A stretch of 64,000 nt of DNA from Actinomycetota bacterium (GCA_947452755.1 CANGDT010000001.1:43217-107216), one strand, 5' to 3'; positions 41,356 to 62,770 are shown, counted from the stretch's first letter. Program-made: numbers and translations. Notes: generated from the letters alone by a model not told the origin.

Positions 41356-43248
41356 CTAGAGAACCAGAATGATGGTCACGGTCGCGCCGCGAACAAGCTT
41401 TGTGCCTGCAGCAGGGGACTGTGATGCGACGTACCGATTTCCACCGAAGGCTGATTGTGTTGCTACCTTAAAGCCAGCATCTGTCAGAGTCTGGGTGGCC
41501 GCTGACTTGGTCATACCTACGACATTTGGCACAGCGACTAACGGCGGACCGTTGCTGACTGTCACATTGATGACAGTGCCCTTTGGAACAGTCGTGCCTG
41601 GTGCAGGCGTGCTCTTGATGACGGTGCCCTTGGCGCTGTTGTCGTAAATACGTTCGGTCACGGCAAGGTCGAGGCCGACAGCCTTCAGTGCAACAGTGGC
41701 CTCGGCAGTTGATTGCCCCACGATTGCGGGTACAGGGACCGGCTTTGGACCCTTAGAAATAATCAAGGTAACTTCGGCGCCACGTTTTACTTTTGCCCCT
41801 GGCAACGGATTGGATGTGACAACTAGTCCAAGAGTAATTTTCTCGTTGAACACCGCTTGGGTTCCCGCCACAACAAGTGTCAAATCTTTAAGTTCCGCGG
41901 TTGCTGTGGTGACATCTTTACCAGCGAGGTCGCTGGGAATAATGAACCGTTCAGGTCCTGCAGAAATAACCACAGAAAGTCGCGAACCCTTGTGGATCTT
42001 TGCGCCAGCTTTTGGATCAGTGCTAATGACTGAACCCTTCGCAACGGATTCAGAGAACCCTGTCGTCACATCGGAAGGAATTCCAGCGTCAGTGAGAACT
42101 TTTTGGGCAGCATCTGCTGTCTGGTTAACAACATCGGGGACAGTCTGTGAGTTTCCTGCATTGACGAAATAAGCTCCCACACCAAGTAGTGCCACGAGTA
42201 GCACTACTGCGAGCCGACGGCGTCGACGCTTCGGATCTGCAGGCTTGCGACCTTTGGTTCGACGGGCTGTAGTAGTCGTAGCGCGATGGGCTCCGGTACC
42301 CACGGCGGTCTGACGCGCAGTGTTGTCCCGTACTGCGGGAATCACCATCGTGTCGGAGTTTGACGGAAGTGCCATAGAGAGTGCTTCGGCCGCTGGCACA
42401 GCCACCTGTGCACGAGCAACACCGTCGGCGAAAATCCGCGCAGATTGAATTCGGTCGTTGACATTGCGACGCGTTGCACCGAGAACCAAATGATCGATGG
42501 CCGGTGGAATGTCTGGTTGGAAAGTACTTGGCGCAGGCACATCTTCATTGACATGGCGGTAAGCAACCTCAAGCGGCGTCGAACCCACATAAGGGACACG
42601 ACCTGTGACGAGCTCAAAAAGCAAGATGCCAGCTGCGTAGACGTCGCAACGCTGATCGACGGGAAGTTGTTGGACCTGCTCTGGTGCAAGATAAGCCATT
42701 GTGCCTAGGAGTACGCCACCTGTGGTCTGGCTAATGGGTTGTTCGCTAATGACGCGAGCAAGGCCGAAATCCGTGACCTTAATGTGCCCATCGCTGGTAA
42801 TGAGAACGTTTTCCGGCTTGATGTCACGGTGTACAAACCCACCGTCGTGCGCAGCTGAAAGACCAGCAAGTACTGCGCGCATAATTTCAAGTGCATGAGC
42901 TGGAGTAAGTGGACCGTTTTGCTGGAGGACTTCGCGAATCGTTCGTCCAGCGACGAACTCCATAACGATGAATGGGAAACCGTTATGTACACCGGTGTCG
43001 TGAACAGCAACAACATTGGGGTGCTGAAGTGAGGCAGTGGCGCGTGCTTCGTGAACAAAACGGTCGACAAATGCCGAATCCTGAGCGAGTGTGCCGGCTA
43101 AGACTTTTAGTGCAACTGTGCGGCTGAGGCGAAGATCGGTGGCGCGGTAGACCGTGGCCATACCGCCGCGAGCTACAAGCTCTTCAACACGATATCGCTC
43201 GTCGATAATTGCGCCCACAAATGGGTCTGGGGTCAGTGTTCCGCTCAC
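41356..43248 (-). CDS. Ser/Thr protein kinase with four extracellular PASTA domains (PknL/PknB type)
   Basis: Kinase motifs HRDIKPENVLI, DFGLAR and YLAPEQ, then a TM segment, then four approximately 65-aa PASTA-like repeats (e.g. VPDVVNQTADAAQKVLTDAG). Confidence 0.9.
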   Translation of the reverse strand: MSGTLTPDPFVGAIIDERYRVEELVARGGMATVYRATDLRLSRTVALKVLAGTLAQDSAFVDRFVHEARATASLQHPNVVAVHDTGVHNGFPFIVMEFVAGRTIREVLQQNGPLTPAHALEIMRAVLAGLSAAHDGGFVHRDIKPENVLITSDGHIKVTDFGLARVISEQPISQTTGGVLLGTMAYLAPEQVQQLPVDQRCDVYAAGILLFELVTGRVPYVGSTPLEVAYRHVNEDVPAPSTFQPDIPPAIDHLVLGATRRNVNDRIQSARIFADGVARAQVAVPAAEALSMALPSNSDTMVIPAVRDNTARQTAVGTGAHRATTTTARRTKGRKPADPKRRRRRLAVVLLVALLGVGAYFVNAGNSQTVPDVVNQTADAAQKVLTDAGIPSDVTTGFSESVAKGSVISTDPKAGAKIHKGSRLSVVISAGPERFIIPSDLAGKDVTTATAELKDLTLVVAGTQAVFNEKITLGLVVTSNPLPGAKVKRGAEVTLIISKGPKPVPVPAIVGQSTAEATVALKAVGLDLAVTERIYDNSAKGTVIKSTPAPGTTVPKGTVINVTVSNGPPLVAVPNVVGMTKSAATQTLTDAGFKVATQSAFGGNRYVASQSPAAGTKLVRGATVTIILVL

Positions 43249-43343
43249 CGTTGCAGTCTATTTGACGCTTATGTCACGGCGCTCAGCACCTCTGCCGAGT
43301 AGATTCGTATCTAGGTATTGCACTCCACAAAAGGAATTCACTA

Positions 43344-43694
43344 ATGGCACACTTCGCGTATTTAGCGATTCTCGTTGCGTGTTTGTGCGGTACGGCACTT
43401 CTTGAACTAGTGCTTCGCGCACGCGTTTACTCCAAACCCCAACGGCTATTTCTCAGTGCCTTTCCCGTCGTTGTGATCTTCACTCTGTGGGACATTTATG
43501 CAATAGGGCAGGGACACTGGACCTTTGATCCGCGCTATGTCACCGGAATTTCTGTGATTGCCAACGTGCCGCTTGAAGAAGTGTGTTTCTTTATAGCGAT
43601 TCCACTGTGTTCCATTTTGACGCTCGAGGCAGTACGAAGCGTGCGCGGCTGGACAGTCGGCGACGAGGTCAGCGAACCTGGTGAACGTCCATGA
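43344..43694 (+). CDS. crtYc: Lycopene cyclase domain protein, heterodimeric cyclase subunit
   Basis: About 116-aa three-TM protein with VPLEEVCFFIAIPL (the PxEE motif of the lycopene-cyclase domain). ATGA overlap with the second subunit. Confidence 0.75.
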   Translation: MAHFAYLAILVACLCGTALLELVLRARVYSKPQRLFLSAFPVVVIFTLWDIYAIGQGHWTFDPRYVTGISVIANVPLEEVCFFIAIPLCSILTLEAVRSVRGWTVGDEVSEPGERP

Positions 43695-44062
43695 CATACA
43701 CGCAGTTAGCACTCACGGGAGTTACCGTTGCTGTGGTGCTGGATTTGTTTATTTTCCAGACGCGCCTAGTCACTCGCAAAGTCTTTTGGACCTCTTACGC
43801 CATCATCATCACGTTCCAGCTGATAACAAATGGCATCCTGACAGGGCTGCGTATCGTTCGATACAACGGTGACGCCATCCTCGGCTCCAGCACGCCAGCG
43901 AATCACGCGCCACCATTCATGGGCGAGGGCCGCATAGCCTTCGCGCCAGTTGAAGACCTTTTCTTTGGATATGCACTAGTACTGCTGACGCTAGTTCTCT
44001 GGGTATGGAACGGCCGACGTGGCATTCAACGCGAACCACTCAGTGGACCGCCGCGCATATAA
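43691..44062 (+). CDS. crtYd: Lycopene cyclase domain protein, heterodimeric cyclase subunit
   Basis: About 123-aa three-TM protein with APVEDLFFGYALVL (the PxED motif). It is paired with crtYc, as in Brevibacterium and Mycobacterium-type cyclases. Confidence 0.75.
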   Translation: MTYTQLALTGVTVAVVLDLFIFQTRLVTRKVFWTSYAIIITFQLITNGILTGLRIVRYNGDAILGSSTPANHAPPFMGEGRIAFAPVEDLFFGYALVLLTLVLWVWNGRRGIQREPLSGPPRI

Positions 44063-44070
44063 CCACCTAG

Positions 44071-44130
44071 CGCAATTCTTATCCTGCGCTGCTCGGTCAG
44101 CGCAATTCTTATCCTGCGCTGCTCGGTCAG
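44071..44130. repeat. Perfect 2 x 30-bp tandem duplication (cgcaattcttatcctgcgctgctcggtcag)
   Basis: Identical copies at 44071-44100 and 44101-44130, with partial unit matches on both flanks (ag / cgca). Each unit contains an agcgca-N10-tgcgct hairpin. The second copy carries the crtB stop codon. Confidence 0.95.
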
Positions 44131-45032
44131 CGCAGTGCCTGAGTGCGCACCCAAGCGGGAAGCGCAACTCGGAGTCGACGAGCTAACGACACCGTTGCGC
44201 GTTTAGTAAACACTTCGTAATCGATATCTTCGACAGCATCGACAATTCCGCAATAAAGAACTCGTGCAGTCTCGATGCACGGGCGCGCTTCGGGACTCAA
44301 CATCGAAATTCCAGCACGCGATTTTTCTTCCAAATCCCGCACCCGTGTAATTTGTTCTCGCAATGCAGCTTTAACGGCCGGTGTCGCAATGCGCTGTTCC
44401 AGAACTTCACGAGTGACACCATGTTTGGCCAACTCTGACATTGGTAGGTAGACGCGGCCTCGTTCAAGATCCTCGTCAACGTCTCTAATGAAGTTCGCAA
44501 GTTGGAATGCCACACCTAATTCCGTCGCATGGGTGTATGCCGCAGCATCGTTGGGTTCAAGGATTGGCACCATCTGCAATCCGATGACCGCAGCGGACCC
44601 ATAAACGTATTCATACAGGTCGTCGAAAGTGTTGTATTCGGTGACAGTGAGGTCCATCGTCATTGAATGCAAAAATGCCTCAAAATGCTCACGCGGAATA
44701 TTCCAGCGGTGCACTGTATCTAAAACAGCTGCACAGATCGGGTCGTCACTTGTGGGCTGATCATATTGCGCTAAGAACGCATTACCCCAATGTGCAAGTT
44801 GTTCAGCCTTCTGAGCATCGGTCAGCTTCGAGGCTAGGTCATCCACAATTTCGTCGGCATATCGAGCAAACCCATACAGCGCGTGCACGTAAGGCCGCTT
44901 TTCTGGCGGTAGCAGGAGTGTTGCTAAGTAGTAAGTCTTTCCGTGCTTTGCATTTAATTGACGGCACAACTCATACGATTTGCGTAGTGCAGGATCGGTG
45001 ATTCCAGCTGCATCTAGATCGCGAGACGACAT
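44127..45032 (-). CDS. crtB: Phytoene synthase
   Basis: Squalene/phytoene synthase signatures YGFARYADEIVDD and LANFIRDVDEDLERGRVYLP. Confidence 0.9.
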   Translation of the reverse strand: MSSRDLDAAGITDPALRKSYELCRQLNAKHGKTYYLATLLLPPEKRPYVHALYGFARYADEIVDDLASKLTDAQKAEQLAHWGNAFLAQYDQPTSDDPICAAVLDTVHRWNIPREHFEAFLHSMTMDLTVTEYNTFDDLYEYVYGSAAVIGLQMVPILEPNDAAAYTHATELGVAFQLANFIRDVDEDLERGRVYLPMSELAKHGVTREVLEQRIATPAVKAALREQITRVRDLEEKSRAGISMLSPEARPCIETARVLYCGIVDAVEDIDYEVFTKRATVSLARRLRVALPAWVRTQALR

Positions 45033-45144
45033 GACAGCAACCTTAACTTGTTCACCAGAACTCTGCGCATGCGCGGCGCGAAGGTAGAGTTAGGTGAAAT
45101 TCTTTTCGCGGTTCAACGTTAAACAAACAAAATTGAGGTTACGG

Positions 45145-45588
45145 GTGGTCAGTCCAAATCCGGGATTATTAGCGGCACTTGTGCGCACGGGTAACCTGTC
45201 GGGAATTTTGCGGTGGAAGGTGAACCTCAGCGCCGATGTCGTGCTTGGAGAGGCAACACAGTGTGCATGGACTGGAACATGGATCGACACATCGACTCTC
45301 ACTGATCTGGACACTGTTTTGCGCCAGTTTGCTCACGAACTCAATTTCCCTGATTACTTCGATCGCACGACCCCGGCACTGGGTGAATTTTTAGCGGATG
45401 TACTTTCTGGTGAAAACAAGAGATTTATTGTCTGGTCCGGCTGGCAAGATTTTGTGCGTTCAGACGCCGAACAGGCGCAAGCGGTAGCGCAGGCACTGGA
45501 CTACGTCGGTGTGCAGCACGGTAGGCCGATTTTTGTAGTTGATTCAGCTGGCGACTTCCCAGAAATCGCTGAATTGGCACAAATGTAA
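45145..45588 (+). CDS. Barstar-like (RNase-inhibitor family) domain protein
   Basis: LTDLDTVLRQFAHELNFPDYFDRTTPALGEFLADVL...FIVWSGWQDF parallels Bacillus barstar [32 protein letters not shown]...LEWRQFEQ. The start is set to GTG 45145 (GAGG RBS 6 nt upstream); the track start at 45094 is possible. Confidence 0.55.
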   Translation: MVSPNPGLLAALVRTGNLSGILRWKVNLSADVVLGEATQCAWTGTWIDTSTLTDLDTVLRQFAHELNFPDYFDRTTPALGEFLADVLSGENKRFIVWSGWQDFVRSDAEQAQAVAQALDYVGVQHGRPIFVVDSAGDFPEIAELAQM

Positions 45589-45596
45589 TTTTGCGC

Positions 45597-47198
45597 TTAG
45601 TGCAAGACTGCGGTTGCGGCTCTTAATTCTTGACTTGCATTCAACGGCGCAATCCCGCGAGTTTCATCTCCACCAATCAGAAGTTTGCGCTCACGTGTTG
45701 ATGCGAGCGCGGCGAGCACCAAAGTAGCCCCTGCGAGCAACATGGCAACACCGTCTGAGATTTCAATAAAAGTGTCCGAAGTTGCGCTGGCATATGCGAC
45801 ACCATGAATGGTGAATGCAGCAATGGTCAGCATCATCCAACGCATGTGGCGCGGACGTAGTCCGGTTGCAGCCAGAAGTGGAAATGACCACAACAGGTAC
45901 CACGGTTGAACAACTGGTCCGCATGCGACAAGAGCGAGAAAAGCTAGAGCAGCGCCTCGCGTTGCCGAGCGACCTTGCGGGCGCACAACCAGAAAAATTA
46001 ATAGTGCGGCGAGAACCAGCGAACCAATGGCGCGAATTGCAGCAATGATGACCACGTCGTGGTGACCAAGTCCGAAGAATTGCACAACTGACGACAGGAG
46101 CATGCCTGCAACAGTCGTAGGTGAAAGCCAACTGTGCACCGAGCCCGTGGTCGATAGCGCAGAAAGCCAACCAAATGGACCAACGCCTGCGAAGGTTGAC
46201 ATTCCGACGAGAGCAAAGAGAGCCAGAGTTGCAGTTGCTGCGCCGTAGCCAATTCGTTTGCGCCAATGTGCGTGCGTTCCAGCGATAATCAGTGCGACAA
46301 ACGGGAGTACGACGACACCGACTGGTTTGACACCCAAAGCCAACGTTCCTGCGATCGTTGCCAGAAACCAATGTCTATAGAGGGCCAGAACAAGTGCAAG
46401 ACAAACGAATGCAACCATCAACGCATCATTGTGGGCTCCGGCGATGAAGTGCATAAAGATAAGTGGATTCATGACACCCAACCAGAATGCTTGAATGTCG
46501 TTGATTCCGTGGTGGCGTGAAATCACTGGTATGCAGATTGCAATGGCGATGACACCAATTACTGCGAGCGCTCGGAAAATATAACTCGCAAGCAGGGCCG
46601 AGTCCCCAGCCAGCTGGGCAACATATTTTTCAATGAGCAAGAACACTGGGCCATAGGGAGTCTTTGCTTCACCCCACAGTGGGTCGACACCGCTGGAAAA
46701 CCAACCTGGAACCAGTGCAACACCTGAACTGTAGGGATTATGCCCCTCAAGTTGCATGCGCCCTTGCATGTAATACGAGTACACATCTCGGCTGAACAGT
46801 GGCGGCGCTATGAGTAATGGAAGAACCCATGCGGTCATTGCGATATGAAGTGTGCGTAATTGCTTGATGCTTCCAGCTAATGCGTCGCTGCCGGCAACAA
46901 GCCAGGCCTGCAGAAGAAGGGCGGCACCCACAACAACAAACGAGCGAGATAGCGCCAATCCAAGCGTTTGGGTTTGCAGAAAGTTAACTAGTGTCCATTC
47001 CTGTGCATGTGCAGAAAGTGGAAACCAACCCACGCCGAAACTTCCAAAGGCAATAAACGAGGTACCCAAAAAACCTGGAAGGGCATACAGCGACCACACC
47101 ACGTGATCCGTCGATGTTGTGCTTTCGTTTGCTTGGGTGCTCACCCAAATTAGGTTAGCGGGATTAACGCAACGCGCGTGACCGATACGAGCGGTCAA
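45597..47198 (-). CDS. GT-C polyprenol-phosphomannose-dependent alpha-1,6-mannosyltransferase (MptA/MptB-like)
   Basis: Large polytopic protein with PPLFSRDVYSYYMQGRM and DPLWGEAKTPYGPVF, as I recall for MptA/MptB. It occupies the Rv2174-equivalent position next to idsA. The start is uncertain: TTG 47198 overlaps crtI by 35 bp, and GTG 47144 is an alternative. Confidence 0.65.
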   Translation of the reverse strand: MTARIGHARCVNPANLIWVSTQANESTTSTDHVVWSLYALPGFLGTSFIAFGSFGVGWFPLSAHAQEWTLVNFLQTQTLGLALSRSFVVVGAALLLQAWLVAGSDALAGSIKQLRTLHIAMTAWVLPLLIAPPLFSRDVYSYYMQGRMQLEGHNPYSSGVALVPGWFSSGVDPLWGEAKTPYGPVFLLIEKYVAQLAGDSALLASYIFRALAVIGVIAIAICIPVISRHHGINDIQAFWLGVMNPLIFMHFIAGAHNDALMVAFVCLALVLALYRHWFLATIAGTLALGVKPVGVVVLPFVALIIAGTHAHWRKRIGYGAATATLALFALVGMSTFAGVGPFGWLSALSTTGSVHSWLSPTTVAGMLLSSVVQFFGLGHHDVVIIAAIRAIGSLVLAALLIFLVVRPQGRSATRGAALAFLALVACGPVVQPWYLLWSFPLLAATGLRPRHMRWMMLTIAAFTIHGVAYASATSDTFIEISDGVAMLLAGATLVLAALASTRERKLLIGGDETRGIAPLNASQELRAATAVLH

Positions 47199-48696
47199 TG
47201 CCAGTGATACGTTCTGCGGCTAAGCGGCCAGAGACTAAAACCATAGGCACGCCAACGCCTGGCTGGGTACCTGAGCCGGTAAAGACAACATTGTCGCCAA
47301 ACATATTTCCTGGCCGGAAGGGCCCTGTTTGGAGGAACGAATGTGCGGCCGCGAACGGTGCGCCACGTTCCATGCCACGATCTGCCCAATCTTGAGGTGT
47401 GGTGATGTGTTCAACTTCAATGCTGTCACCGAACCCGTTGTAGCCGCGCTCTTCCAGTGTGGCAATCACGTGCTCGCGGTACCGAGGAGATTCCTTCGCC
47501 CAGTCAATGTTGGCATCTAAGTTTGGTGTGGGGAACAGAACGTAATAAATCTGTTTGCCATCAGGTGCTAATGACGGGTCGCCGTGCGTCGGGTTGGTCA
47601 CGAGAACACTTGGGTCCGACATAAGCGTCTTTTTGTTGATGAGCTCGTCAAATACACCAGCCCAACTCTTTCCAAAGTGAATGTTGTGGTGCGCAACGTG
47701 GTCGTACGATGCTGAAGAACCCGCCAAGAGCAAGTAACACGATGGTGAATATTTTAATCGCTTGACGCTCCATGGCTCCTGGCCGAGTAAGTCGCGGTAG
47801 GCAATCGGTAGATCAGGATTCAATACAACGACATCAGCAGGAATAAATTCGCCAGTTGCGGTTTCAACTCCTGTTGCTCGCGTTCCATTCATGACAACTT
47901 TTGTTACTTCGGTGTCGAACTTGAAGGTCACACCATGTTTCTGGGCTGCTGCAGCCATTGCGCTAGGGACAGCGTGCATTCCACCCTTAGGAAAGAAGAC
48001 TCCAGCGACCGAATCCATGTAAGCGATAACGGCATAAATTGCCAGTGCGTCGTACGGTGACAAGCCTGCATACATCGCTTGGAATGAATAGATACGTTGT
48101 GTGCGGTCATCCTTGAGGTACTGGCTGACTTTTGGCATCAACTTGCGGAAACCACCAATTCTGAGCAAATTCGCAAAGTCGCCTGAAAGTAAATCAAGGG
48201 GTGAATCAATGTTGCGGTCGATGAAACTACGCATCTCGTATTTATAGAGATCCGATACAAACTCCACATACTTGCGGTATCCGTTTGCTTCGCTGGTGCC
48301 GATGACGCGTTCAATTTCCGCAGCCATGTCGTCAACATTCGCATGGACATCTAGAACACTGCCGTCTGCGTAAAAAGATCGGTACAACGGTGCAACTGGT
48401 TCGAGTTCCAGCCAGTCGCTCATCTCTTCGCCCAGGCTGTCGAAGGCGTCGGCAATCAGGTCAGGCATTGTTAATACGGTCGGGCCATTGTCGAATTCGA
48501 ATCCGTTGTCGCTGATACGACCGGCCCGCCCGCCTGGAATGCTTTCGCGTTCGACGACCGTCACTGTTCGCCCAGCTCCAGCAAGACGCATTGCAGCCGA
48601 GAGACCAGCCAAGCCGGCACCGACAATGACCACATTGTCGGTTGGTCCGCTTACGGTGCGTGGAGTTCCGTTTGGAATCCAGCGTGAGATCGACAT
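47164..48696 (-). CDS. crtI: Phytoene desaturase
   Basis: VVIVGAGLAGLSAAMRLAGAGRTVTVVE FAD motif and the C-terminal bacterial phytoene-desaturase signature FTGSGTQPGVGVPMVLVSGRLAAERI. The start is set to MSISRW (48696), 1 bp after the crtE stop. Confidence 0.88.
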   Translation of the reverse strand: MSISRWIPNGTPRTVSGPTDNVVIVGAGLAGLSAAMRLAGAGRTVTVVERESIPGGRAGRISDNGFEFDNGPTVLTMPDLIADAFDSLGEEMSDWLELEPVAPLYRSFYADGSVLDVHANVDDMAAEIERVIGTSEANGYRKYVEFVSDLYKYEMRSFIDRNIDSPLDLLSGDFANLLRIGGFRKLMPKVSQYLKDDRTQRIYSFQAMYAGLSPYDALAIYAVIAYMDSVAGVFFPKGGMHAVPSAMAAAAQKHGVTFKFDTEVTKVVMNGTRATGVETATGEFIPADVVVLNPDLPIAYRDLLGQEPWSVKRLKYSPSCYLLLAGSSASYDHVAHHNIHFGKSWAGVFDELINKKTLMSDPSVLVTNPTHGDPSLAPDGKQIYYVLFPTPNLDANIDWAKESPRYREHVIATLEERGYNGFGDSIEVEHITTPQDWADRGMERGAPFAAAHSFLQTGPFRPGNMFGDNVVFTGSGTQPGVGVPMVLVSGRLAAERITGIDRSYRSRALR

Positions 48697-48697
48697 G

Positions 48698-49765
48698 TTA
48701 GAACGCCCTTTGGGTTGCAATACGAACAAGTTCAGTGAGAGCTTCGCGAGCATCATTGGCAATCAGTGGGGTAGCCAAGGCAGCGACTGCGCGCGCGGTC
48801 ATTTCTTCAATGCGCGTTTCGACCGCAGCCAACGCTCCGCAGTCAACGAGGCGTGCACTGATATCGCTGATGTGGTCAGAGGTGATTGAAGGGTTTCCAA
48901 GGTGGTCTGTCAAAAGTGAGCGAAGCTGGTCGTCGCCTAATTCGCGTCCGTATGCAACCAAGACGGTTTCTTTTCCTTCGCGCAAGTCGTCACCCGTTGG
49001 TTTGCCAGTTGTCTTTTGATCGCCAAAAACTCCGAGCACGTCATCACGAAGTTGGAATGCTTCGCCTAATGCCAACCCGTAACTGCTGAGCGCTTCATTG
49101 AGTTCCGTTGGGGCATCTCCGATAGCAGCGCCGAGTAACAAAGGTCGTTCGATTGTGTATTTTGCGCTCTTGAAGCGAATCACGTTCGTTGCGCGCTCAA
49201 CGGTCGTGTTTCCTCGCACTTGTTCAAGCAGATCGAGATACTGACCAGCCATAAGTTCCGTACGCATCACGTCATAAACAGTTTTGGCACGTGTGACCTC
49301 GTCGATAGCCAGACCAGATGTCAGCAACAGTTCATCAGCCCAGGAGAGCGCAAGGTCACCAATCAAAATTGCTGCACCTTCACCAAATTTGAGTGCATCA
49401 CCGCGCCACTGACCATGCTCGTGAAGTGCCTGAAATTGTTTGTGTGTCGAAGGGTTTCCGCGCCGTGTGTCGCTGCTGTCCATGACGTCGTCGTGGATCA
49501 GCGCACACGCTTGGAGGAATTCAAGTCCCGCGCAGGCTCGAACGAGTGCATCGGAATCTTCGCCGCCAGTTGCGCGGTAACCCCAGTAGGCGAATGCGGG
49601 ACGTAGGCGCTTACCGCCGGAAATTAGTTGCGTGAGCGATACGGCAAGAACAGATACATCTGGTGAAATCGCATCGAGCATCGGTCGCCGAGCGTCGACA
49701 AATTCTGACAACGTCGATTCAATCCTGGCACGCAGGTCATTGTGGTCTAGCGGATTGATGGACAC
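48698..49765 (-). CDS. crtE: Polyprenyl (geranylgeranyl) diphosphate synthase
   Basis: First and second Asp-rich motifs LIHDDVMDSS and FQLRDDVLG. It is directly upstream of crtI and corresponds positionally to mycobacterial idsA2. Confidence 0.88.
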   Translation of the reverse strand: MSINPLDHNDLRARIESTLSEFVDARRPMLDAISPDVSVLAVSLTQLISGGKRLRPAFAYWGYRATGGEDSDALVRACAGLEFLQACALIHDDVMDSSDTRRGNPSTHKQFQALHEHGQWRGDALKFGEGAAILIGDLALSWADELLLTSGLAIDEVTRAKTVYDVMRTELMAGQYLDLLEQVRGNTTVERATNVIRFKSAKYTIERPLLLGAAIGDAPTELNEALSSYGLALGEAFQLRDDVLGVFGDQKTTGKPTGDDLREGKETVLVAYGRELGDDQLRSLLTDHLGNPSITSDHISDISARLVDCGALAAVETRIEEMTARAVAALATPLIANDAREALTELVRIATQRAF

Positions 49766-49833
49766 CCTTTTAGGTTATTGGTTAAGGCGGTTCATTGCAC
49801 GGTGGGCGTTCGTTAATGCGACAGGATGACCGT

Positions 49834-50514
49834 ATGAGTGTTGTTTTGTCCCGTGCCGAATACTTTGCGATGTGGTCGCAACTCCACGGCGGAATTCAGC
49901 CTCGCGGTGTCGTACGAGGCTGGTTGAGCCTGGCTCATTTTCTTGCTCGACCATTCTTCAGGCTCTCACCAAATGCAATCTCGTCATTTTCAGTAGTTGT
50001 TGCTGTAGCAGTGGCAGTTCATGTTCGGGATGGCAACCACCTGCTCGCGCTAGATGCGTTGTTAGTGGTCGCCATTGGGATGTTAGACAGCCTCGATGGT
50101 GTCGTTGCCGTGTGCACGGATCGGGTGACGCGATGGGGCGCAGTGCTGGATTCCATTGCGGATCGCACTGTCGATTTCCTTCTTGTCGTGATGTTGGTTC
50201 GCGTAGGAGCGTCGATACCGCTAGCAGCAATAGCGCTCACTGCCTCGTTTGTCCTTGAATACATGCGTGCTCGAGCTCAAGGTTTAGGCGTAACCGAAGT
50301 CACTGTGATTACTGCCGGTGAAAAGCCAACCCGCATCATTATTGTTGCCATGTTTTTACTTGCGTGCGGTGTGATTCCTGATCACTGGCAGTTACTCAGC
50401 GAAATCGCAATCTGCGTGTGGTTGACCGTTTCAGCAATTGGTGTCGTTCAACTAATGCGGGATTACAAGAAAGTTTTAAGCTCGCCCGATGTGCGTGGCC
50501 ACAATCTCGGCTGA
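49834..50514 (+). CDS. CDP-alcohol phosphatidyltransferase (PgsA1 / phosphatidylinositol-phosphate-synthase-like)
   Basis: Signature DSLDGVVAV-x8-GAVLDSIADR (D-x2-DG-x2-A[R->V]...G-x3-D-x3-D). YMRARAQGLG and EKPTRIIIV resemble my recollection of mycobacterial PgsA1. The start is uncertain (49795, 49816 or 49834). Confidence 0.75.
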   Translation: MSVVLSRAEYFAMWSQLHGGIQPRGVVRGWLSLAHFLARPFFRLSPNAISSFSVVVAVAVAVHVRDGNHLLALDALLVVAIGMLDSLDGVVAVCTDRVTRWGAVLDSIADRTVDFLLVVMLVRVGASIPLAAIALTASFVLEYMRARAQGLGVTEVTVITAGEKPTRIIIVAMFLLACGVIPDHWQLLSEIAICVWLTVSAIGVVQLMRDYKKVLSSPDVRGHNLG

Positions 50515-51966
50515 CATGCCAACCAGCGGAAGTCCGCCGCCTGGGTGAGACGAGCCGCCGACCAGGTACAGATTTTTAATTGCGGTGACATTTCGCGGAC
50601 GAAGGAATGCAGACATCGCACCGTTGCTCGACGAACCATAGATTGCTCCGCCAGGTGCCATTGTGCGGCCTTCAAGGTCTGCTGGACTGATGGATTCATG
50701 CCATGTCATTCGTGCGCGTGAACCAGGCAAACGACGTTCTATTGAGTCAAGTACGAGTTCGGAATAATGGGCATGCTCCTTTGTCCAGTTGACACCGTGA
50801 TCAACATCGTGTCGTGGGGCATTAACGAGCACAAACCACGACTCAGTGTTTTCTGGCGCCATCGCTGTGTCTTTTGGAGAGCAAATGTAAATCGTAGGGT
50901 CGGGAACAGGGCGTGGAGACGAGCTAGTTCCAAAGATGCTGTCGAATTCATTGTCGTAATCCGCGGGGAAAAACACATTGTGATGCTCAAGTTCGTCATT
51001 GACGCCATCTAATGCTGCCAACACGACGAACCCGCTCAGGGAGGGTGTTGCCCTCTGAAGTCGGTGCACGTCTCGGGACGAGGCATCGAGCGCAGTGTCA
51101 TTAAGCAAGGATGAATACACCTGAGCAGCATCACAATTTGCAACGACAATGTCGGCCGGAACGTGGGTGCCGTTTGCTAATTCGATACCAGTAACGCGCT
51201 CATTCGTCGTGATTTTTTCAACGGTCTGGTTGAAATGGAAGTTCACGCCAATCTCGGTACAACGTTCAAATAGCGCGCGACCTAATTCACGAAGCCCTCC
51301 GGCAACGTGGTACGCGCCAAACGTTTGCTCTATGTACGGGACGGTCGCTAGTGCCGCTGGTGCTTGCCGCGGATCTGATCCTGTGTACGTTGCGTAGCGA
51401 TCCACAAGTGTGACCAATCGTGGATCCGAAAAGTAGTGCTCTGAAAGAGAGCGCAACGTTCGACCTGGTGAAATTGTCACCAAGTCATTTACCCGCCAGG
51501 ACAACTTCAGCAAACTCTTCATCCCGTTGAGTGGTGATTCCAAGAACGGTCGACGAGTCGCGGCCCACATCTTGGCGGCACGCGCCATGAATGCTCGCCA
51601 CTCATCAGCAGAATTTCCGCCGAGCGCATCCCCGATAGCTTCAGCGCAACTACCTATTCCTGTACCTGGCATCTTGAGCACTGTGCCATCGGCAAACTGG
51701 TACCTGAAAGCGGTATCAAGGTCCACTATCTCAATTGAGTCCTCAATGGCTCGGCCGGTCTTCAGGAACAGGTCGCGATATACGGCTGGCAAAGTGAGCA
51801 GACTAGGGCCGGTATCAAATTTGTGCTCACCATGGCTGACGTGGCCAAGCTTGCCACCCCAGGTGTCCGAATGTTCGTAAACATTGACTGTATGACCCTT
51901 GGCTGCAAGCCTTGCGGCAGTAGCCATCCCACCCATGCCTGCACCAATGATTACTACGGTCGCCAC
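50476..51966 (-). CDS. CrtI-family carotenoid desaturase paralogue (CrtD-like, putative 3,4-desaturase)
   Basis: VVIIGAGMGGMATAARLAAKGHTVNVYE and the C-terminal LYLVGGSSHPGGGLPLVGMSAEIVA are typical of the phytoene-desaturase family. The CrtD role is inferred only from the CruF-like neighbour. Confidence 0.7.
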   Translation of the reverse strand: MATVVIIGAGMGGMATAARLAAKGHTVNVYEHSDTWGGKLGHVSHGEHKFDTGPSLLTLPAVYRDLFLKTGRAIEDSIEIVDLDTAFRYQFADGTVLKMPGTGIGSCAEAIGDALGGNSADEWRAFMARAAKMWAATRRPFLESPLNGMKSLLKLSWRVNDLVTISPGRTLRSLSEHYFSDPRLVTLVDRYATYTGSDPRQAPAALATVPYIEQTFGAYHVAGGLRELGRALFERCTEIGVNFHFNQTVEKITTNERVTGIELANGTHVPADIVVANCDAAQVYSSLLNDTALDASSRDVHRLQRATPSLSGFVVLAALDGVNDELEHHNVFFPADYDNEFDSIFGTSSSPRPVPDPTIYICSPKDTAMAPENTESWFVLVNAPRHDVDHGVNWTKEHAHYSELVLDSIERRLPGSRARMTWHESISPADLEGRTMAPGGAIYGSSSNGAMSAFLRPRNVTAIKNLYLVGGSSHPGGGLPLVGMSAEIVATHIGRA

Positions 51967-51975
51967 AGCACAACC

Positions 51976-53082
51976 TTAAGGCGCATCAACGGTACGACCC
52001 TTCCAGGTATTTGTCTTTCGTAGGTGGCGCGCCCACGACACGCAATTGAGCCAAGCGAAAGCAACTATCGACACTGAATGGAAAAACGCGTCAGGGAGAA
52101 CCCGTTGCTGAGTCTTGCGGGCAACAAACCACCGACCATATTCACCACAGAGCAATGCAAGTACGGCGATGTCTCGATCGGGTCCGAATAGGCTGACGAG
52201 AGGGAAACTGTAGACGAATAGCAAAAATGCGTTAACAGCAATTGAGCCAACTGGACCGCCGAATGCCTTCCAGAGGCTCTTGCTATATCCGTCAACGAGT
52301 GCGCGATTGCTGTCATACATTTCGCAAGTTGCTAATGTCGTGCCATTAGCAACAGTGCCATGGAAACCGTGACGAAGAAATGAACGTAGCAGTTCGATGT
52401 CATCGAGAATGCAGTCTTTGATGCCTTCATGTCCGCCAGCTTCGAGGTAGGCGTCACGGCGACACACGATGAACTGGCCGTTTGCAACCGCAAAGCTTGG
52501 TCGCATACTCGTGCGCGCTTTTTTGAGTGGCACGGTTGTGAGAAATGACCACTGGAGGAGTGGTTGAACGAGTCGAGTGAGCCAAGTATTTGCAATCTGT
52601 CGGGGATAGGGGCTGATGAACTCCAGGTCCGAGTTATTCATTGTGGTGATTGCTGATGCAACTGCGTGCGGTTCGAGAGTGACATCCGAATCAATGAACA
52701 CCAGGTATTCGGCCGATGATTGCTGAGCTAAACGATGACATGCCCAATTTTTTCCGAGCCATCCCGACGGTAATTCATCTTGCGTGTTGACAATCGTTAT
52801 TGCGTCACCGAACTCCACTAATTTCTCAAGTGTGCGATCGGTTGATTGATCATTGAGGACTCGTACCGCACAACTTGCCAATGACGTTTGGCCGAGTGCG
52901 GATGTCACTGCTTGTGAAATGGTGACTTCTTCGTTTCGGGCAGGAATCAAAATATCAACCGATGAATGCAGCAAAGTGCCTTCTGTAATTTGAGTGGGCT
53001 CAATAAACCCTGACAAGTTGAACAGTGTGAAGACAGTGAGCGCCCACGAAACAACTAGCGCAGCGATGAGCGCGTCATGCAT
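51976..53082 (-). CDS. Family 2 glycosyltransferase (CruC-like, putative carotenoid glycosyltransferase)
   Basis: GT2 N-terminal block ILIPARNEE...LNDQSTDRT and a DxD motif FIDSDV, with N- and C-terminal TM segments. It lies inside the carotenoid tailoring operon. Confidence 0.7.
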   Translation of the reverse strand: MHDALIAALVVSWALTVFTLFNLSGFIEPTQITEGTLLHSSVDILIPARNEEVTISQAVTSALGQTSLASCAVRVLNDQSTDRTLEKLVEFGDAITIVNTQDELPSGWLGKNWACHRLAQQSSAEYLVFIDSDVTLEPHAVASAITTMNNSDLEFISPYPRQIANTWLTRLVQPLLQWSFLTTVPLKKARTSMRPSFAVANGQFIVCRRDAYLEAGGHEGIKDCILDDIELLRSFLRHGFHGTVANGTTLATCEMYDSNRALVDGYSKSLWKAFGGPVGSIAVNAFLLFVYSFPLVSLFGPDRDIAVLALLCGEYGRWFVARKTQQRVLPDAFFHSVSIVAFAWLNCVSWARHLRKTNTWKGRTVDAP

Positions 53083-53842
53083 GGCTGCGCGCCTTCTGAA
53101 TTTTGAGGTTCAGTGGCACCATGACAGTTCCCATCGCGGCAAATCCAGCCAGTGCGACATGTGGTCGATTGAGGAATGGCGAGAACCACACTGCGTGAGC
53201 GAGCGCTCCGCCTAACCATGTCCACATCAGCATGATGAAAGGAATCGTGTTGTTCCACTGTGGCTTCCCGGCAGCCAAAATACGCAGCGCAATCCAACCT
53301 ATGAGTGCAGACGTAATAAACCATCCTGCGTAATTGTGGAGTGGAATTGCGTTCACTTCGAATCCGCTGTGATTCCACGCCCAATAGTTTTCGTTTGTCA
53401 TCTGTGGGTCCAGATAGAAATCCCAGCCCGTCATCAATGCAGCAACGATTGAAACTTTCATGACTGTGGTCTCGGCCAGGTAACTTGCCGCAAGCGCGCA
53501 TGGGTAAATCATCATGAACCAGGCAAGTGGAATAAGGATCGGTACTCCACCAATGACGGGACCGAGGGCATTTCCGTACGCGTAGTGACCAAAAAGCGCG
53601 CCTGAATGCACACCAATAAATTCAACGACAAATGTCAACGCGAGGACCGAGGCAATCAATCGCAGTGTGATGCTGCGTCCAAAATTCACCCAGCAATGTA
53701 TTGCGCTGACTGCAGTAAATGCCAGCACGCCTATAACTGTGATGACAGCACGTGCATCTCCATGGCTGAGTGGCCAGGCGATGTTGAAGAGTATTGACAA
53801 GATTGCAAAGCTGAGACAATTTCGTTTCAATGTCGATTTCAT
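53075..53842 (-). CDS. Carotenoid biosynthesis membrane protein (CruF / Caroten_synth-like, putative 1,2-hydratase)
   Basis: Seven to eight TM segments with GALFGHYAYGNALGP..GGVPILIPLAWFMMIYP and DPQM...WAW...PLHNYAGWF. This fits the pattern I recall for the PF04240 family. 8-bp overlap with GT2 and 4-bp overlap with the CrtA-like gene. Confidence 0.6.
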   Translation of the reverse strand: MKSTLKRNCLSFAILSILFNIAWPLSHGDARAVITVIGVLAFTAVSAIHCWVNFGRSITLRLIASVLALTFVVEFIGVHSGALFGHYAYGNALGPVIGGVPILIPLAWFMMIYPCALAASYLAETTVMKVSIVAALMTGWDFYLDPQMTNENYWAWNHSGFEVNAIPLHNYAGWFITSALIGWIALRILAAGKPQWNNTIPFIMLMWTWLGGALAHAVWFSPFLNRPHVALAGFAAMGTVMVPLNLKIQKARSHA

Positions 53843-54537
53843 AGCGCATCAAAATCCACATCTTTGTACGTACCTGTTGCACCGATTACTTTGAAGCGGG
53901 CAAACAGCTCTTCTTTGTACCAACCTGTCTCATGGGTGCGACGAATGACATCGCGGTGAGGCTGTTGTTTGATTGCAAAATTGGAAATACTTTCATTGGA
54001 ACTCCACACGCTAAAAGTTCCTTGCAAACCAACGGGAGCTTCACCAATTCCGAGGCTCGTAATTAAGCCGGGAGTGTTGTTGAGATCAATGGCAACAGGG
54101 GGGACACTCTTCCAAAATTGCCGCCACCAACGTACTTTGATGTTCGCTCGAGTAAGTGCGGCAGTCAAGCCATTCCAAGTGGGATCTGGGTGTGCATTGA
54201 AAGGTTCGTAGCCACCCCATTGACCTTTGCTCGAAAGTGGCTCGAGAACTAGTTGAGCATGTGCGGTGGCAATGGAGTTCCATTGGGCGGCAGCATTCGA
54301 CTGTGCAAACTGGGCAGGTCCCGTGATGGAATTCCAGGCTGTGAGGACAACCCAGTGTGTCGTGTCGGCGTCACGAATTGTGAAGGTGCGTCCCGAGCCA
54401 GTGCCAAGGAGTTTGAAAAATGTCACGTTTGGCATTTTGCGCAATGTGCGCCGCTGTCGAGCCATATTGAGAAGGGCACGTAAAACTGAAGTTCTCTTGA
54501 TGCGCCACACATCAATACAAATAACAGATGACCCCAT
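53839..54537 (-). CDS. Spheroidene-monooxygenase (CrtA)-like protein
   Basis: FFKLLGTGSGRTFT, LTRANIKVRWWRQFW, IGEAPVGLQGTFSVW and GWYKEELFARFKVIGATGTY parallel my recollection of Rhodobacter CrtA. The start is MGSSVICIDVW (54537); 54555 is an alternative. Confidence 0.6.
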   Translation of the reverse strand: MGSSVICIDVWRIKRTSVLRALLNMARQRRTLRKMPNVTFFKLLGTGSGRTFTIRDADTTHWVVLTAWNSITGPAQFAQSNAAAQWNSIATAHAQLVLEPLSSKGQWGGYEPFNAHPDPTWNGLTAALTRANIKVRWWRQFWKSVPPVAIDLNNTPGLITSLGIGEAPVGLQGTFSVWSSNESISNFAIKQQPHRDVIRRTHETGWYKEELFARFKVIGATGTYKDVDFDAL

Positions 54538-54541
54538 GGTC

Positions 54542-55060
54542 CTAGTCTGTCGCAACGGCTGACGGAGTGCCTAACGTGAGTTGCACCAGTTGTGTGAACG
54601 AAGTAGGGAAGACTGCGTGTGTGTGGCCTGCGGCGGCCCATACTTCGGTGTAATTCTCCAGTGCCGAGTCAACGAGTGTGCGTGGCTGATAGGGAAGCCC
54701 CTCATGAAGCCAACCAACTGGACTCACACCACCGATTGCAAATCCACTCCAAGTACGCACGAAATCCGCATCTGCGCGACCTAACTTTCCAAGGTGATGT
54801 TCGGCTGACACTTTTTCCGTATCAACTCGGTGACGTCCAGACGTCACCACCAACAGCGGAACTTCATGGCCTTCATGCGTAATTCGAAAAACAATTGAGG
54901 AGGCAATTTGACCTACTTCGATGCCAAGAGCATTGGCGGCATCAACTGCTGTGCGCGCAGAGTCACTCAAATGCGTAATGGGTGTCTCTGTCGATCCCAG
55001 AAAAGACTCGAGCACACCGCGCACGCGCTTTATTGACGCATGTTCGGTGTGCTCGGTCAT
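54542..55060 (-). CDS. YbaK/EbsC-family (aminoacyl-tRNA trans-editing-like) domain protein
   Basis: About 172 aa with SARTAVDAANALG...IASSIVF...PLLVVTSGRHRVD...FAIGGVSPVG, the typical YbaK-domain pattern. Confidence 0.7.
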   Translation of the reverse strand: MTEHTEHASIKRVRGVLESFLGSTETPITHLSDSARTAVDAANALGIEVGQIASSIVFRITHEGHEVPLLVVTSGRHRVDTEKVSAEHHLGKLGRADADFVRTWSGFAIGGVSPVGWLHEGLPYQPRTLVDSALENYTEVWAAAGHTHAVFPTSFTQLVQLTLGTPSAVATD

Positions 55061-55088
55061 AGTTCTATGAACTTAGTGCACGCTGTGG

Positions 55089-56441
55089 TTATGCAAGTGC
55101 TTCTTTGAATTGTTGTTCGATGATTGTCAAAGCATCTTCAAGCAAATGTTCAGGCATCACCAAAGGTGGAAGGAATCGCAGGATATTTCCGTAGGTTCCG
55201 GTTGTCAGAACAACAACACCTTCACCATGGCAACCCTTGGCAATCTTGCTGGTTAGTTCAGCATCTGGTTCATGGGTTCCTGGCTTGGTGATTTCAACTG
55301 CAATCATTGCGCCACGTCCACGGACCTCAGCGATAACGCCAGTTTCTTCAGCAATTTTTTCTAGACGAGGTCGCATGATTTCTTCGATGCGAACAGCCTT
55401 TGCGTTCATGTCTTGACTTTCCATCGCCGCGATTGAGCCGAGGGCAGCTGCGCAGGCAATTGGGTTACCACCGTAGGTGCCACCGAGCCCACCTGCATGA
55501 ACACTGTCCATGATTTCAGCGCGACCAGTTACCGCAGCGAGTGGCAGCCCACCAGCGATGCCCTTAGCGGTCGTGATCAAGTCAGGAACAATCCCTTCGT
55601 GCTCTGAAGCAAACCACTTGCCAGTACGGCAGAAGCCAGCCTGAACTTCGTCAGCTACAAAAACAATCCCGTTGTCATTTGCAAACTTCACAATGTCCTT
55701 GAGGAAACCCTCGGCAGGAACAATGAAGCCACCTTCACCTTGTATGGGTTCGATAACAATCGCAGCAATTTGGTCAGCGCCAATTTCCTTGCTCATGCGA
55801 CTGATTGCCTTCGCTGCTGCCTCAGGACCAGAAAGTCCATCGTGCAGCGGGTAGGACATCGGCATGCGATAAATCTCTGGTGAGAACGGACCAAAGCCGG
55901 TCTTGTATGGCGCAGCCTTTGCAGTCATGGCCATTGTCATGTTGGTACGACCGTGGTAACCATGTTCAAAAACAACAACTGCCTGGCGCTTTGTGTAAAC
56001 GCGGGCAATCTTCACTGCGTTTTCAACGGCTTCTGCACCGGAATTGAATAGCGCTGATCGCTTTTCGTGATCACCGGGTGTCAAACGGTTCAGTGCTTCA
56101 CACACCTCTACGTAACCCTCGTACTGAGTCACCATGAAACATGTGTGTGTGAACTTGGCAACCTGCTCAGTGACACGATCGACAACACCTTGGTCCGAGT
56201 TGCCGACTGTTGTTACTGCGATACCCGAGCCCATATCGATAAGTGAGTTGCCATCAATGTCAACGACAACGCCACCTGCGGCACGATCGATGAAAATCGG
56301 CATGGTCGCGCCAACACCAGCGCTGACAGCACCTGTGCGACGCTTCTGCATCTCTACTGATTTTGGACCTGGAATTGCGGTTACAAGGCGGCGCTCTTGT
56401 GCGATGCCATTGACCAATGTGGATGAGTCTGAAGTTGTCAT
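55089..56441 (-). CDS. gabT: 4-aminobutyrate--2-oxoglutarate aminotransferase (class III PLP aminotransferase)
   Basis: [11 protein letters not shown] and the PLP-lysine block [12 protein letters not shown]; 450 aa. Confidence 0.85.
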
Positions 56442-56611
56442 GTCGCCAATGCTAGCCCCTGATCAAGGCAAGAAACCATTCGTATCCGCATAGATTGCAC
56501 CAGTCAAAATGTGACCTTGATTATGTGAATCGTGAATGAGTTACGTCACACCCTGCTGCGAAACCTCACATGGGTTTTTGCCCAGCGACACAGCGGGCGT
56601 AACGTAGGGGC

Positions 56612-58071: not shown

Positions 58072-59295
58072 GTGCGCAATGTCATTGTTCTCGGATCAAC
58101 TGGGAGCATTGGCACGCAGACACTCGACATCATTGCTGCCAATTCAGATAAATTTCGAGTTATCGGATTGTCGGCCGGTGGCAGCAATCCCAACTTGTTG
58201 GCGCAACAGGCCATCGAGTTCGCTGTTGAATATGTAGCAATTGCAAATGGGACTGCTGCACAGGACTTCCAGCTAGCACTGTATGCACATGCGCAAAAAG
58301 CTGGGTATGCCGAGGGTTCATACGAATTACCTAAATTGCTCATTGGTCCCGATGCAGCAACTCAGCTCGCCGCGGTGCCATGTGATGTTGTGGTTAACGG
58401 AATCACTGGGGCCGTCGGACTTGGGCCAACTGTTGCCGCATTGAAAGCCGGCACAACTTTGGCACTGGCAAATAAAGAGTCACTTGTGATTGGTGGGCGT
58501 GCAGTCACCTCGCTCGCGGCACCTGGCCAGATTGTTCCCGTTGATTCGGAACATTCAGCACTGGCCCAATGCCTCCTTAGTGGCGATCATTCGGAAGTGT
58601 CGCGCTTAGTTCTCACTGCCAGCGGCGGCCCATTTCGCGGTTATTCACGTGAACAGCTCGCGTCTGTCACAACAGAGCAAGCATTGAAACATCCCACGTG
58701 GGTCATGGGGCCGGTTGTAACAATCAATTCCGCCACCATGATGAACAAGGGCCTTGAAGTGATTGAAGCCCATCTTCTCTTTGGCATCCCTATGGACCGC
58801 ATTGACGTGGTCGTACATCCACAGTCAGTTGTGCACTCCATGGTGGAGTTCGTTGACGGATCAACAATTGCCCAAGCCAGTCCGCCCGACATGCATTTGC
58901 CGATAGCCCTTGGTTTGAATTGGCCACATCGAATTGCAGGTGCCGCTCAAGGGTGTGACTGGTCACAGGCAACGTCTTGGACTTTTGAACCGGTGGACAC
59001 ACAAACCTTCGCTGCCCTTGATCTTGCTCGACTAGCCGGAACGCGTGCCGGCACGGCACCAGCTGTGCTTAATGCGGCAAACGAAGTTGCAGTTCAGGCA
59101 TTCATTGATGGCTCGCTTTCATTTATTGGAATTACCGAAGTTGTCCAAGCTTCAGTGAAAAATCATCTTGATGGTCACTTTGTGTCAGACGAACACCTCA
59201 CAATAGAAGAGGTCCTTCGTGCTGCGGAGTGGGCGGACCAACACAGTCGCGAACTCATTGGTTCGCGCGACGTTCATTCACAGAACGTTCAATAG
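58072..59295 (+). CDS. dxr: 1-deoxy-D-xylulose-5-phosphate reductoisomerase
   Basis: VLGSTGSIGTQTLD NADPH motif, LANKESLV and NKGLEVIEAH. GTG start. Confidence 0.92.
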   Translation: MRNVIVLGSTGSIGTQTLDIIAANSDKFRVIGLSAGGSNPNLLAQQAIEFAVEYVAIANGTAAQDFQLALYAHAQKAGYAEGSYELPKLLIGPDAATQLAAVPCDVVVNGITGAVGLGPTVAALKAGTTLALANKESLVIGGRAVTSLAAPGQIVPVDSEHSALAQCLLSGDHSEVSRLVLTASGGPFRGYSREQLASVTTEQALKHPTWVMGPVVTINSATMMNKGLEVIEAHLLFGIPMDRIDVVVHPQSVVHSMVEFVDGSTIAQASPPDMHLPIALGLNWPHRIAGAAQGCDWSQATSWTFEPVDTQTFAALDLARLAGTRAGTAPAVLNAANEVAVQAFIDGSLSFIGITEVVQASVKNHLDGHFVSDEHLTIEEVLRAAEWADQHSRELIGSRDVHSQNVQ

Positions 59296-59308
59296 AGAGA
59301 CGGCACCT

Positions 59309-60613: not shown

Positions 60614-60695
60614 GCCGCCGCGAAACTGAGCGCTTGTTGCCCGCAAATCATGTGGTGGTCAGGCGCTTTTGATGTACGTACCCGATAATGGTTAT

Positions 60696-62692: not shown

Positions 62693-62770
62693 GTTTTCGG
62701 TTTGCCTTTCAAGGCTTTTGCCTCGCTATCGGTACGATGAAGTCACTATTGATGATTTTGAGGAGTAATC

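Follow-up and report, generated by a model that had tools for sequence, protein, structure and literature searches.

A probable operon for tailoring the carotenoid psi-end, conserved among actinobacteria, beside the core carotenoid genes of an uncultured freshwater-type actinobacterium

The stretch of DNA considered here, a window of 64,000 nucleotides from an Actinomycetota bacterium (GCA_947452755.1, CANGDT010000001.1:43217-107216), contains between positions 43,344 and 54,537 a carotenoid locus in which the core genes crtE, crtI, crtB and crtYc/crtYd lie close to genes for a CrtD-like flavoprotein, a family-2 glycosyltransferase (GT2), a CruF-type membrane protein and a CrtA-like oxygenase (Table 1). 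We conclude that the latter four genes probably constitute a conserved actinobacterial operon that tailors the psi-end of a C40 carotenoid, standing beside crtE-crtI...crtB and crtYcYd. The genes can be assigned to families, they are tightly packed, and their order is conserved across actinobacterial orders. A first-pass annotation of the same DNA had predicted a glycosylated, psi-end-oxygenated, monocyclic product of the myxol-glycoside type, and profiles, synteny and published work all support this. The novelty that it implied for the gene set does not survive comparison, since the same operon has already been described in acI (10.1101/367102), a homologous block is found in Salinispora terp1, and phleixanthophyll is a classical pigment.

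Families were assigned by Pfam and NCBIfam/TIGRFAM profile searches of the window's open reading frames (ORFs), which were taken from a six-frame listing. This listing reproduced exactly the coordinates first given for all nine crt and tailoring genes, and with them the spacings of the tailoring group: a 9-bp gap between crtD and the GT2 gene, an 8-bp overlap between the GT2 gene and cruF, and a 4-bp overlap between cruF and crtA. Such dense packing is operon-like. A scan of positions 43000-57000 for consensus promoters and terminators was uninformative on the limits of the operon, as there were three promoter-like elements against 9.8 in shuffled sequences, and 19 terminator-like elements against 15. 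The four tailoring families originally proposed were recovered as matches to TIGR02734, PF00535, PF04240 and NF045923, with scores well above what chance would give, and a hydropathy scan agrees that the CruF-type protein is polytopic and that the CrtA-like protein is soluble, the latter having no transmembrane segment, as is also true of the CrtD-like protein.

The CrtD-like protein matches its family model over its full length, and its two highest-scoring models are both for CrtD, at 352.6 (NF045637) and 292.4 bits, although it does not reach their respective equivalog cutoffs of 580 and 500; the CrtO model scores 55.8 bits, an isomerase model 88 and the cyanobacterial CrtD model 70. The relative strength of these scores bears on the suggestion that this paralogue is instead a CrtO-type 4-ketolase, which would yield a 4-keto carotenoid suited to xanthorhodopsin-type pumps. 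CrtO-type ketolases do sit within the CrtI family, Dwulit-Smith et al. voiced this caveat with respect to acI (10.1101/367102), and 4-keto-phleixanthophyll occurs in Mycobacterium phlei (PMC5884252). However, the large excess of the CrtD scores over the CrtO score argues against this caveat, and the Salinispora terp1 enzyme, to which the protein is 43% identical, belongs to a cluster that yields a carotenoid carrying a 3',4'-double bond but no keto group. We consider a ketolase at this position highly improbable, and prefer a predicted 3',4'-desaturase.

The CruF-type protein lies outside every curated equivalog, scoring 101 bits against a cutoff of 154.7 for TIGR03460, 65 against 400 for NF045693 and 57 against 300 for NF041333; it is a family homologue, for which hydration of the psi-end is a predicted activity. 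The GT2 protein has a DXD-type motif (DSD, within 'FIDSDV') and hydrophobic segments near both of its ends (residues 5-23 and 281-299). Its score against CruG, 88 bits where equivalog level would require 600, is tied with its score against the hopanoid-associated HpnB (88 bits), and a role in glycosylating carotenoids is predicted from gene context alone.

Homology between the CrtA-like protein and NF045923, the model of Rhodobacter spheroidene monooxygenase, is effectively full-length, with residues 10-232 aligned to positions 2-225 of 226, and its score falls below the equivalog cutoff of 300. In an AlphaFold model (pLDDT 81) the protein folds as two ferredoxin-like alpha+beta repeats, whose structural neighbours include tandem-ABM monooxygenases and haem proteins such as aldoxime dehydratase at TM-scores of 0.54-0.60, most matches being of low TM-score. 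The modelled fold would be compatible with an O2-dependent oxygenase, and says nothing more specific about mechanism. CrtA-family enzymes may stop at the alcohol or go on to the ketone (PMC2889829), and the first-pass annotation had accordingly offered either a myxol-glycoside-like product or its 2'-keto analogue. A C-2' ketolase, which would hydroxylate twice with subsequent loss of water, would give a 2'-keto glycoside; the spheroidene monooxygenase model, itself a ketolase, is the only NCBIfam match that this protein has, the ketolase mechanism of CrtA has been described (PMC2889829), and Meiothermus is listed as having a 2-keto carotenoid glucoside (PMC5884252). Yet the match is well short of equivalog level, the product associated with the homologous cluster of Salinispora is 2'-hydroxylated, and phleixanthophyll and its palmitate, the pigments of this class known from actinobacteria, have a hydroxyl group at C-2' (PMC5884252). 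Because sioxanthin, the Salinispora product, and phleixanthophyll both carry the 2'-hydroxyl group, we favour the first of the two alternatives, in which the enzyme is a C-2' hydroxylase of the CrtA-OH type, and regard the 2'-keto form as unlikely.

The core families named at first, crtE, crtB, crtI and crtYc/Yd, also find profile matches, with NCBIfam scores below cutoff for two of them. One is crtYd, which overlaps crtYc by 4 bp and has homologues at the equivalent position in related loci according to tblastn synteny; crtYc itself has three to four hydrophobic segments. The other is the crtE-like gene, whose best NCBIfam match is a mycobacterial prenyl synthase model (334 bits, under cutoff) and whose stop lies 1 bp from the start of crtI. 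The ATG of crtI is residue 23 of the longest ORF, and its product is 83% identical to orthologues in metagenome-assembled genomes (MAGs) of Nanopelagicales. The remaining gene, crtB, is convergent with crtYd. On the opposite strand, crtYcYd forms a transcription unit of its own. This arrangement is one reason to ask whether the tailoring enzymes might use acyclic lycopene, modifying one end or both, to give an oscillol- or myxobactone-type (di)glycoside, with the cyclase serving mainly for beta-carotene and retinal; another is that CruF and CrtD of other bacteria accept lycopene-type ends, 1-hydroxylycopene having been seen (PMC11855829). Every characterised relative, whether of the sioxanthin, myxol or salinixanthin type, is however monocyclic, and tblastn synteny places cyclase genes together with the cluster in many loci, and we think an acyclic product improbable.

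In proposing a pathway to a monocyclic product, we envisage six steps. First, geranylgeranyl diphosphate (GGPP) synthase, CrtB and CrtI would produce lycopene, one end of which would then be closed by CrtYc/Yd to give gamma-carotene. At the open end, hydration at C-1',2' by CruF would yield 1'-hydroxy-gamma-carotene, desaturation at C-3',4' by the CrtD-like enzyme would yield 1'-hydroxytorulene, and hydroxylation at C-2' by the CrtA-like enzyme would yield deoxymyxol (plectaniaxanthin). Finally, the membrane-bound GT2 would add a hexose, most likely to the tertiary 1'-hydroxyl group; the 1'-O-glucoside position is suggested by analogy with sioxanthin and phleixanthophyll. The end product would be phleixanthophyll or a near relative (a deoxymyxol 1'-glycoside, C46H66O7 with glucose). 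Such a compound corresponds to Salinispora sioxanthin with a beta-ring, and it is the presence of a CrtYc/Yd beta-cyclase, with no crtU seen among the window ORFs scanned, that makes phleixanthophyll the likeliest candidate. Substrate, regiochemistry, the order of steps and the final structure are all elements that we infer.

Evidence for this reading also comes from relatives of these genes. When genomes, one per species, were scanned with the CrtA-like protein as query, relatives were found to be encoded at no fewer than 584 loci across Actinomycetes, including Nanopelagicales, Geodermatophilus, Blastococcus, Kineococcus, Quadrisphaera, Nocardioides, Frankia, Catenuloplanes and Motilibacteraceae. 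Synteny was then assessed by tblastn of the window proteins against the best 80 of these at least 584 loci, 59 of which have enough sequence downstream of crtA. The order crtA-cruF-GT2-crtD is retained in the same orientation in 41 of the 59, usually with a convergent CDP-alcohol phosphatidyltransferase gene and crtE-crtI next to it; loci of Nanopelagicales, Kineococcus, Nocardioides, Quadrisphaera and Catenuloplanes are among them. Such retention of order implies a conserved and vertically maintained actinobacterial module rather than a peculiarity of this window. Several MAGs that carry the cluster, at loci L010, L029, L027 and L082, have implausible taxon labels (Bifidobacterium breve, Bifidobacterium sp., Spirochaetaceae, Clavibacter sp.) and are likely to have been mis-assigned.

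A protein 100% identical to the CrtA-like protein is encoded on ENA metagenome contigs and in MAG GCA_947448485.1, where gene order is also identical. Otherwise the nearest species representatives are MAGs, mostly labelled Candidatus Nanopelagicales or generically as Actinomycetota or Actinomycetes, with one bearing the plainly mistaken name Bifidobacterium breve, which share the order gabT-ybaK-crtA-cruF-GT2-crtD-(CDP)-crtE-crtI-mpt-(barstar)-crtB-(crtYd). Identity with these is 54-58% for CrtA, 80-83% for CrtI and 72-80% for GabT, while the G+C content of the window is about 52%, against 47.5-50.5% in the nearest MAG loci. The source of the window is a freshwater-type actinobacterium that is related to the sampled Nanopelagicales species and lies outside them.

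Several considerations weigh against the pathway as we have drawn it. All four tailoring proteins score under the NCBIfam equivalog cutoffs, so that their exact activities are not assured; for this lineage the activities are predicted from homology rather than taken from assayed enzymes. As CruG, a 2'-O-glycosyltransferase, and HpnB score equally low against the GT2 protein, neither the sugar nor its position can be read from profiles. Cyclases of the CrtYc/Yd type can close both ends and so produce beta-carotene, which makes the monocyclic branch dependent on kinetic competition. CrtA-family enzymes can, besides, act as ketolases (PMC2889829). A crtU, crtO, crtZ or acyltransferase gene elsewhere in the genome could alter the product.

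The Pfam scan covered 33 ORFs of the window, leaving outside it about 22 others of at least 150 amino acids, mostly at 465-15513 and 18837-32475 and several of them 308-361 amino acids long. With that limit, no rhodopsin, blh, ketolase or CrtU was matched among the 33, and the earlier statement that the window has no rhodopsin or blh gene is verified to the extent of these scanned ORFs. Nor was a carotenoid acyltransferase identified among the scanned ORFs; the PF01553 acyltransferase at 37118-37813 looks like a housekeeping glycerolipid enzyme. A pathway to C50 carotenoids was considered and dropped, there being no CrtEb-type prenyltransferase among the scanned genes. The link between this pigment and a rhodopsin antenna is speculation; a paper on dual chromophores in Aquiluna has no gene-level information on these enzymes (PMC8113403).

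Table 1. Carotenoid genes of the window and the genes lying between and beside them, with their profile matches.
Feature	Position	Strand	Profile match
crtYc, heterodimeric lycopene beta-cyclase subunit	43344-43694	+	TIGR03462, 77.6 bits (cutoff 39.4); PF18916, 41 bits
crtYd, second cyclase subunit	43691-44062	+	TIGR03462, 32.6 bits, E 9e-8 (under cutoff of 39.4)
crtB, phytoene synthase	44127-45032	-	PF00494 SQS_PSY, 235 bits; top NCBIfam model CrtB, 198 bits
Barstar-like, probably not a carotenoid gene (between crtB and mptA-like)	45094-45588	+	PF01337, 39.8 bits
MptA/MptB-family GT-C mannosyltransferase-like membrane protein	45597-47099	-	TIGR03459, 213 bits; NF038066 MptB, 168 bits
crtI, phytoene desaturase	47164-48696	-	TIGR02734 crtI_fam, 506 bits
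crtE/idsA-type polyprenyl (GGPP) synthase	48698-49765	-	PF00348 Polyprenyl_synt, 172 bits
CDP-alcohol phosphatidyltransferase paralogue	49816-50514 (alternative start 49795)	+	PF01066, 45 bits
CrtD-like CrtI-family flavoprotein, predicted carotenoid 3',4'-desaturase	50476-51966	-	TIGR02734, 333 bits (cutoff 238), full length
Membrane-anchored GT2, predicted carotenoid glycosyltransferase	51976-53082	-	PF00535 Glycos_transf_2, 51 bits
CruF-type predicted carotenoid 1',2'-hydratase, polytopic	53075-53842	-	PF04240 Caroten_synth, 123 bits (cutoff 25), residues 38-214
CrtA-like oxygenase, predicted psi-end C-2' hydroxylase (CrtA-OH type)	53839-54537	-	NF045923, 173.5 bits, E 4e-51
YbaK-like (tRNA_edit domain)	54542-55060	-	PF04073, 65 bits

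Two neighbours of the tailoring genes deserve attention. The interval of 0.7 kb that had been noted between crtE and the tailoring genes is correct as a spacing, but it is not empty, for it holds the CDP-alcohol phosphatidyltransferase gene on the plus strand. This gene is divergent from crtE, its start lying 30-50 bp from the crtE start codon, and convergent with crtD, the 3' end of which it overlaps by 39 bp; its top NCBIfam match is an archaetidylinositol-phosphate / PIP synthase model (90 bits against a cutoff of 180). Of the 59 loci, 33 have a gene of this type downstream of crtA and on the strand opposite to it, and so does Salinispora. On the other side, the YbaK-like gene shares the strand of crtA and stops 4 bp short of the ATG of the latter, which is preceded at a distance of 2 nt by AGGA; the two genes are probably co-transcribed, and this closeness means that the tailoring operon may begin further upstream. 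Among 75 loci, 39 have a YbaK-like homologue upstream of crtA in the same orientation, directly adjacent in 16. It also adjoins crtA in Salinispora, despite differences in the genes further upstream, and this suggests a linkage that goes beyond shared gene order.

Conserved next to the operon in genomes ranging from Micromonosporales to Nanopelagicales-like ones, the YbaK-like and CDP-alcohol transferase genes are the only unexplained elements of the arrangement. It is conceivable, if decidedly doubtful, that they are undescribed members of the pathway which further decorate the carotenoid glycoside, for instance by attaching an (amino)acyl ester or a phospho-linked head group, or that the pigment is an actinorhodopsin antenna in freshwater actinobacteria, or both. 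As conserved neighbours they offer leads that are cheap and testable.

The remaining neighbours help to explain why the locus appears divided. The window flanks encode a class-II DAHP synthase, a PASTA Ser/Thr kinase, a PlsC-type acyltransferase, a FadD-like ligase and a GT4 glycosyltransferase, as well as cytochrome c and cytochrome oxidase subunit II. Together with the MTHFR and Rv2175c-like genes that Salinispora has, they agree with the gene order that is conserved around Rv2172c-Rv2200c in Mycobacterium tuberculosis (MTHFR, idsA2, mptA, Rv2175c, pknL, aroG and others). It appears that the crt genes are interspersed in this backbone of housekeeping genes, and an interleaving with a backbone of mycobacterial type would account for the 'split' locus, the intercalated mptA-like gene and the IdsA-like character of 'crtE'. 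The MptA/MptB-like protein has about ten hydrophobic segments, and PF26314 is matched on the identical gene in locus L001; its gene, between crtI and crtB, is best regarded as a housekeeping neighbour and not a carotenoid enzyme, an association that looks like a by-product of conserved idsA2-mptA order. TIGR03459 was originally named 'carotene biosynthesis associated membrane protein' ('crt_membr').

The barstar-like ORF has no NCBIfam match and is kept at the same position in Nanopelagicales-like loci; no barnase-like partner was noticed. About 3.5 kb from the tailoring operon, at 58072-61850 on the plus strand, are the MEP-pathway genes dxr and ispG (gcpE), with an M50 site-2 protease gene between them; the proximity of dxr-rseP-ispG is probably their usual conserved neighbourhood and not a pathway supercluster. 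Two minus-strand ORFs, at 33987-35189 (400 amino acids) and 62726-63532 (268 amino acids), have no Pfam or NCBIfam match.

The structural features of this locus have close counterparts in other actinobacteria, one of which is Salinispora. In S. tropica and S. pacifica we find a block comprising YbaK-like, CrtA-like, GNAT, CruF, GT2 and CrtD genes, CDP-transferase and MTHFR genes in reverse orientation, and a prenyl synthase gene, continuing with an Rv2175c-like gene and a PASTA kinase gene; the proteins are 34-51% identical to those of the window, and the YbaK-like gene is 6 bp upstream of crtA. This ten-gene block matches Strop_3244-Strop_3253, or terp1, which was annotated as a cluster that 'lacks core genes' (PMC3125804) and is also listed as a region assigned to sioxanthin (PMC7888443). 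The psi-end of sioxanthin is 1'-glucosyloxy, 2'-hydroxy and 3',4'-didehydro (PMC6025630), and these are exactly the modifications predicted from the four enzymes of the window. Salinispora shares with the window the YbaK-like, CrtA-like, CruF, GT2 and CrtD genes, the convergent CDP-alcohol phosphatidyltransferase gene, the prenyl synthase gene and a PASTA kinase gene nearby. It differs in that a GNAT-like gene separates crtA from cruF and that MTHFR precedes the prenyl synthase gene; its crtB, crtI, cyclase and crtU genes lie elsewhere, and its carotenoid has an aryl (phi) ring, whereas in the window crtI, crtB and crtYcYd lie alongside and a beta-ring would be expected. The sioxanthin regions were reportedly confirmed by genetic inactivation by Richter, Hughes and Moore in 2015.

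The acI operon for 'actinoxanthin' is a second counterpart. Dwulit-Smith et al. (2018, bioRxiv 10.1101/367102) described crtA-cruF-cruG-crtD beside crtE-crtI-crtB in all acI clades, found intergenic transcripts in metatranscriptomes that back its status as an operon, and showed experimentally that the acI CrtE, CrtB and CrtI make lycopene. Their predicted product, a glycosylated and hydroxylated derivative of gamma-carotene that might be an actinorhodopsin antenna, was unverified, and 'actinoxanthin' has never been isolated. As in the window, the four genes keep this order and are upstream of crtE-crtI-crtB, and crtB is convergent on crtYd. CrtA is 43-58% identical between the window and homologues in MAGs labelled Nanopelagicales, whose G+C content is 47.5-53.5% compared with 52% here. 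One difference is that the position immediately ahead of crtA is usually taken in acI by an alpha/beta-hydrolase 'acyltransferase' gene, and in the window by the YbaK-like gene. We considered whether the two are the same gene and rejected this, as the gene is an alpha/beta-hydrolase in a Nanopelagicaceae MAG and is absent from the window. What lies upstream of crtA varies among Nanopelagicaceae MAGs: locus L074 has an alpha/beta-hydrolase (9213-10001) that is probably the acI 'acyltransferase', while L083 has a 131-amino-acid ORF (9606-10001), possibly glyoxalase-like, with a YbaK-like gene before it.

Outside the actinobacteria, the myxol pathway of flavobacteria (Flavobacterium P99-3; Nonlabens spongiae) employs the same three psi-end enzymes. 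In lycopene-producing E. coli, flavobacterial CrtY and CruF give 1'-hydroxy-gamma-carotene, the addition of CrtD gives 1'-hydroxytorulene, and the further addition of CrtA-OH gives deoxymyxol (PMC11855829). This pathway belongs to another phylum, has no glycosyltransferase in its cluster, uses CrtY in place of CrtYc/Yd, and adds a 3-hydroxyl group with CrtZ. Salinixanthin, the xanthorhodopsin antenna of Salinibacter ruber, resembles our predicted product in its 2'-hydroxy, 3',4'-didehydro, 1'-acylglucoside psi-end (PMC6025630), but its synthesis requires both a 4-keto ring and an acyl ester, and no ketolase, carotenoid acyltransferase or rhodopsin was identified among the window ORFs scanned. 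Phleixanthophyll, the deoxymyxol 1'-glycoside, has been known from M. phlei and Nocardia since 1967; together with its 4-keto form and palmitate ester it is a classical pigment of these organisms (PMC5884252), and it has been reported, as an unpublished observation, in Actinoplanes missouriensis (PMC11425705). Here the comparison is one of chemistry only.

The window thus adds one uncultured freshwater actinobacterium to a widespread and described cluster, and provides no new evidence on pigment structure or on binding to actinorhodopsin. Its practical value is that core and tailoring genes all fall within 11 kb, a compact template for expressing the pathway of freshwater actinobacteria, which could help to settle what 'actinoxanthin' is and whether the pigment binds actinorhodopsin. 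Differences from the known relatives are minor: it lacks the alpha/beta-hydrolase gene of acI and the GNAT insert of Salinispora, and its core genes are alongside rather than dispersed. In all other respects compared, this locus is a further example of the pigment cluster already represented by the terp1 module, the acI operon and the phleixanthophyll or deoxymyxol-glycoside class of carotenoids.

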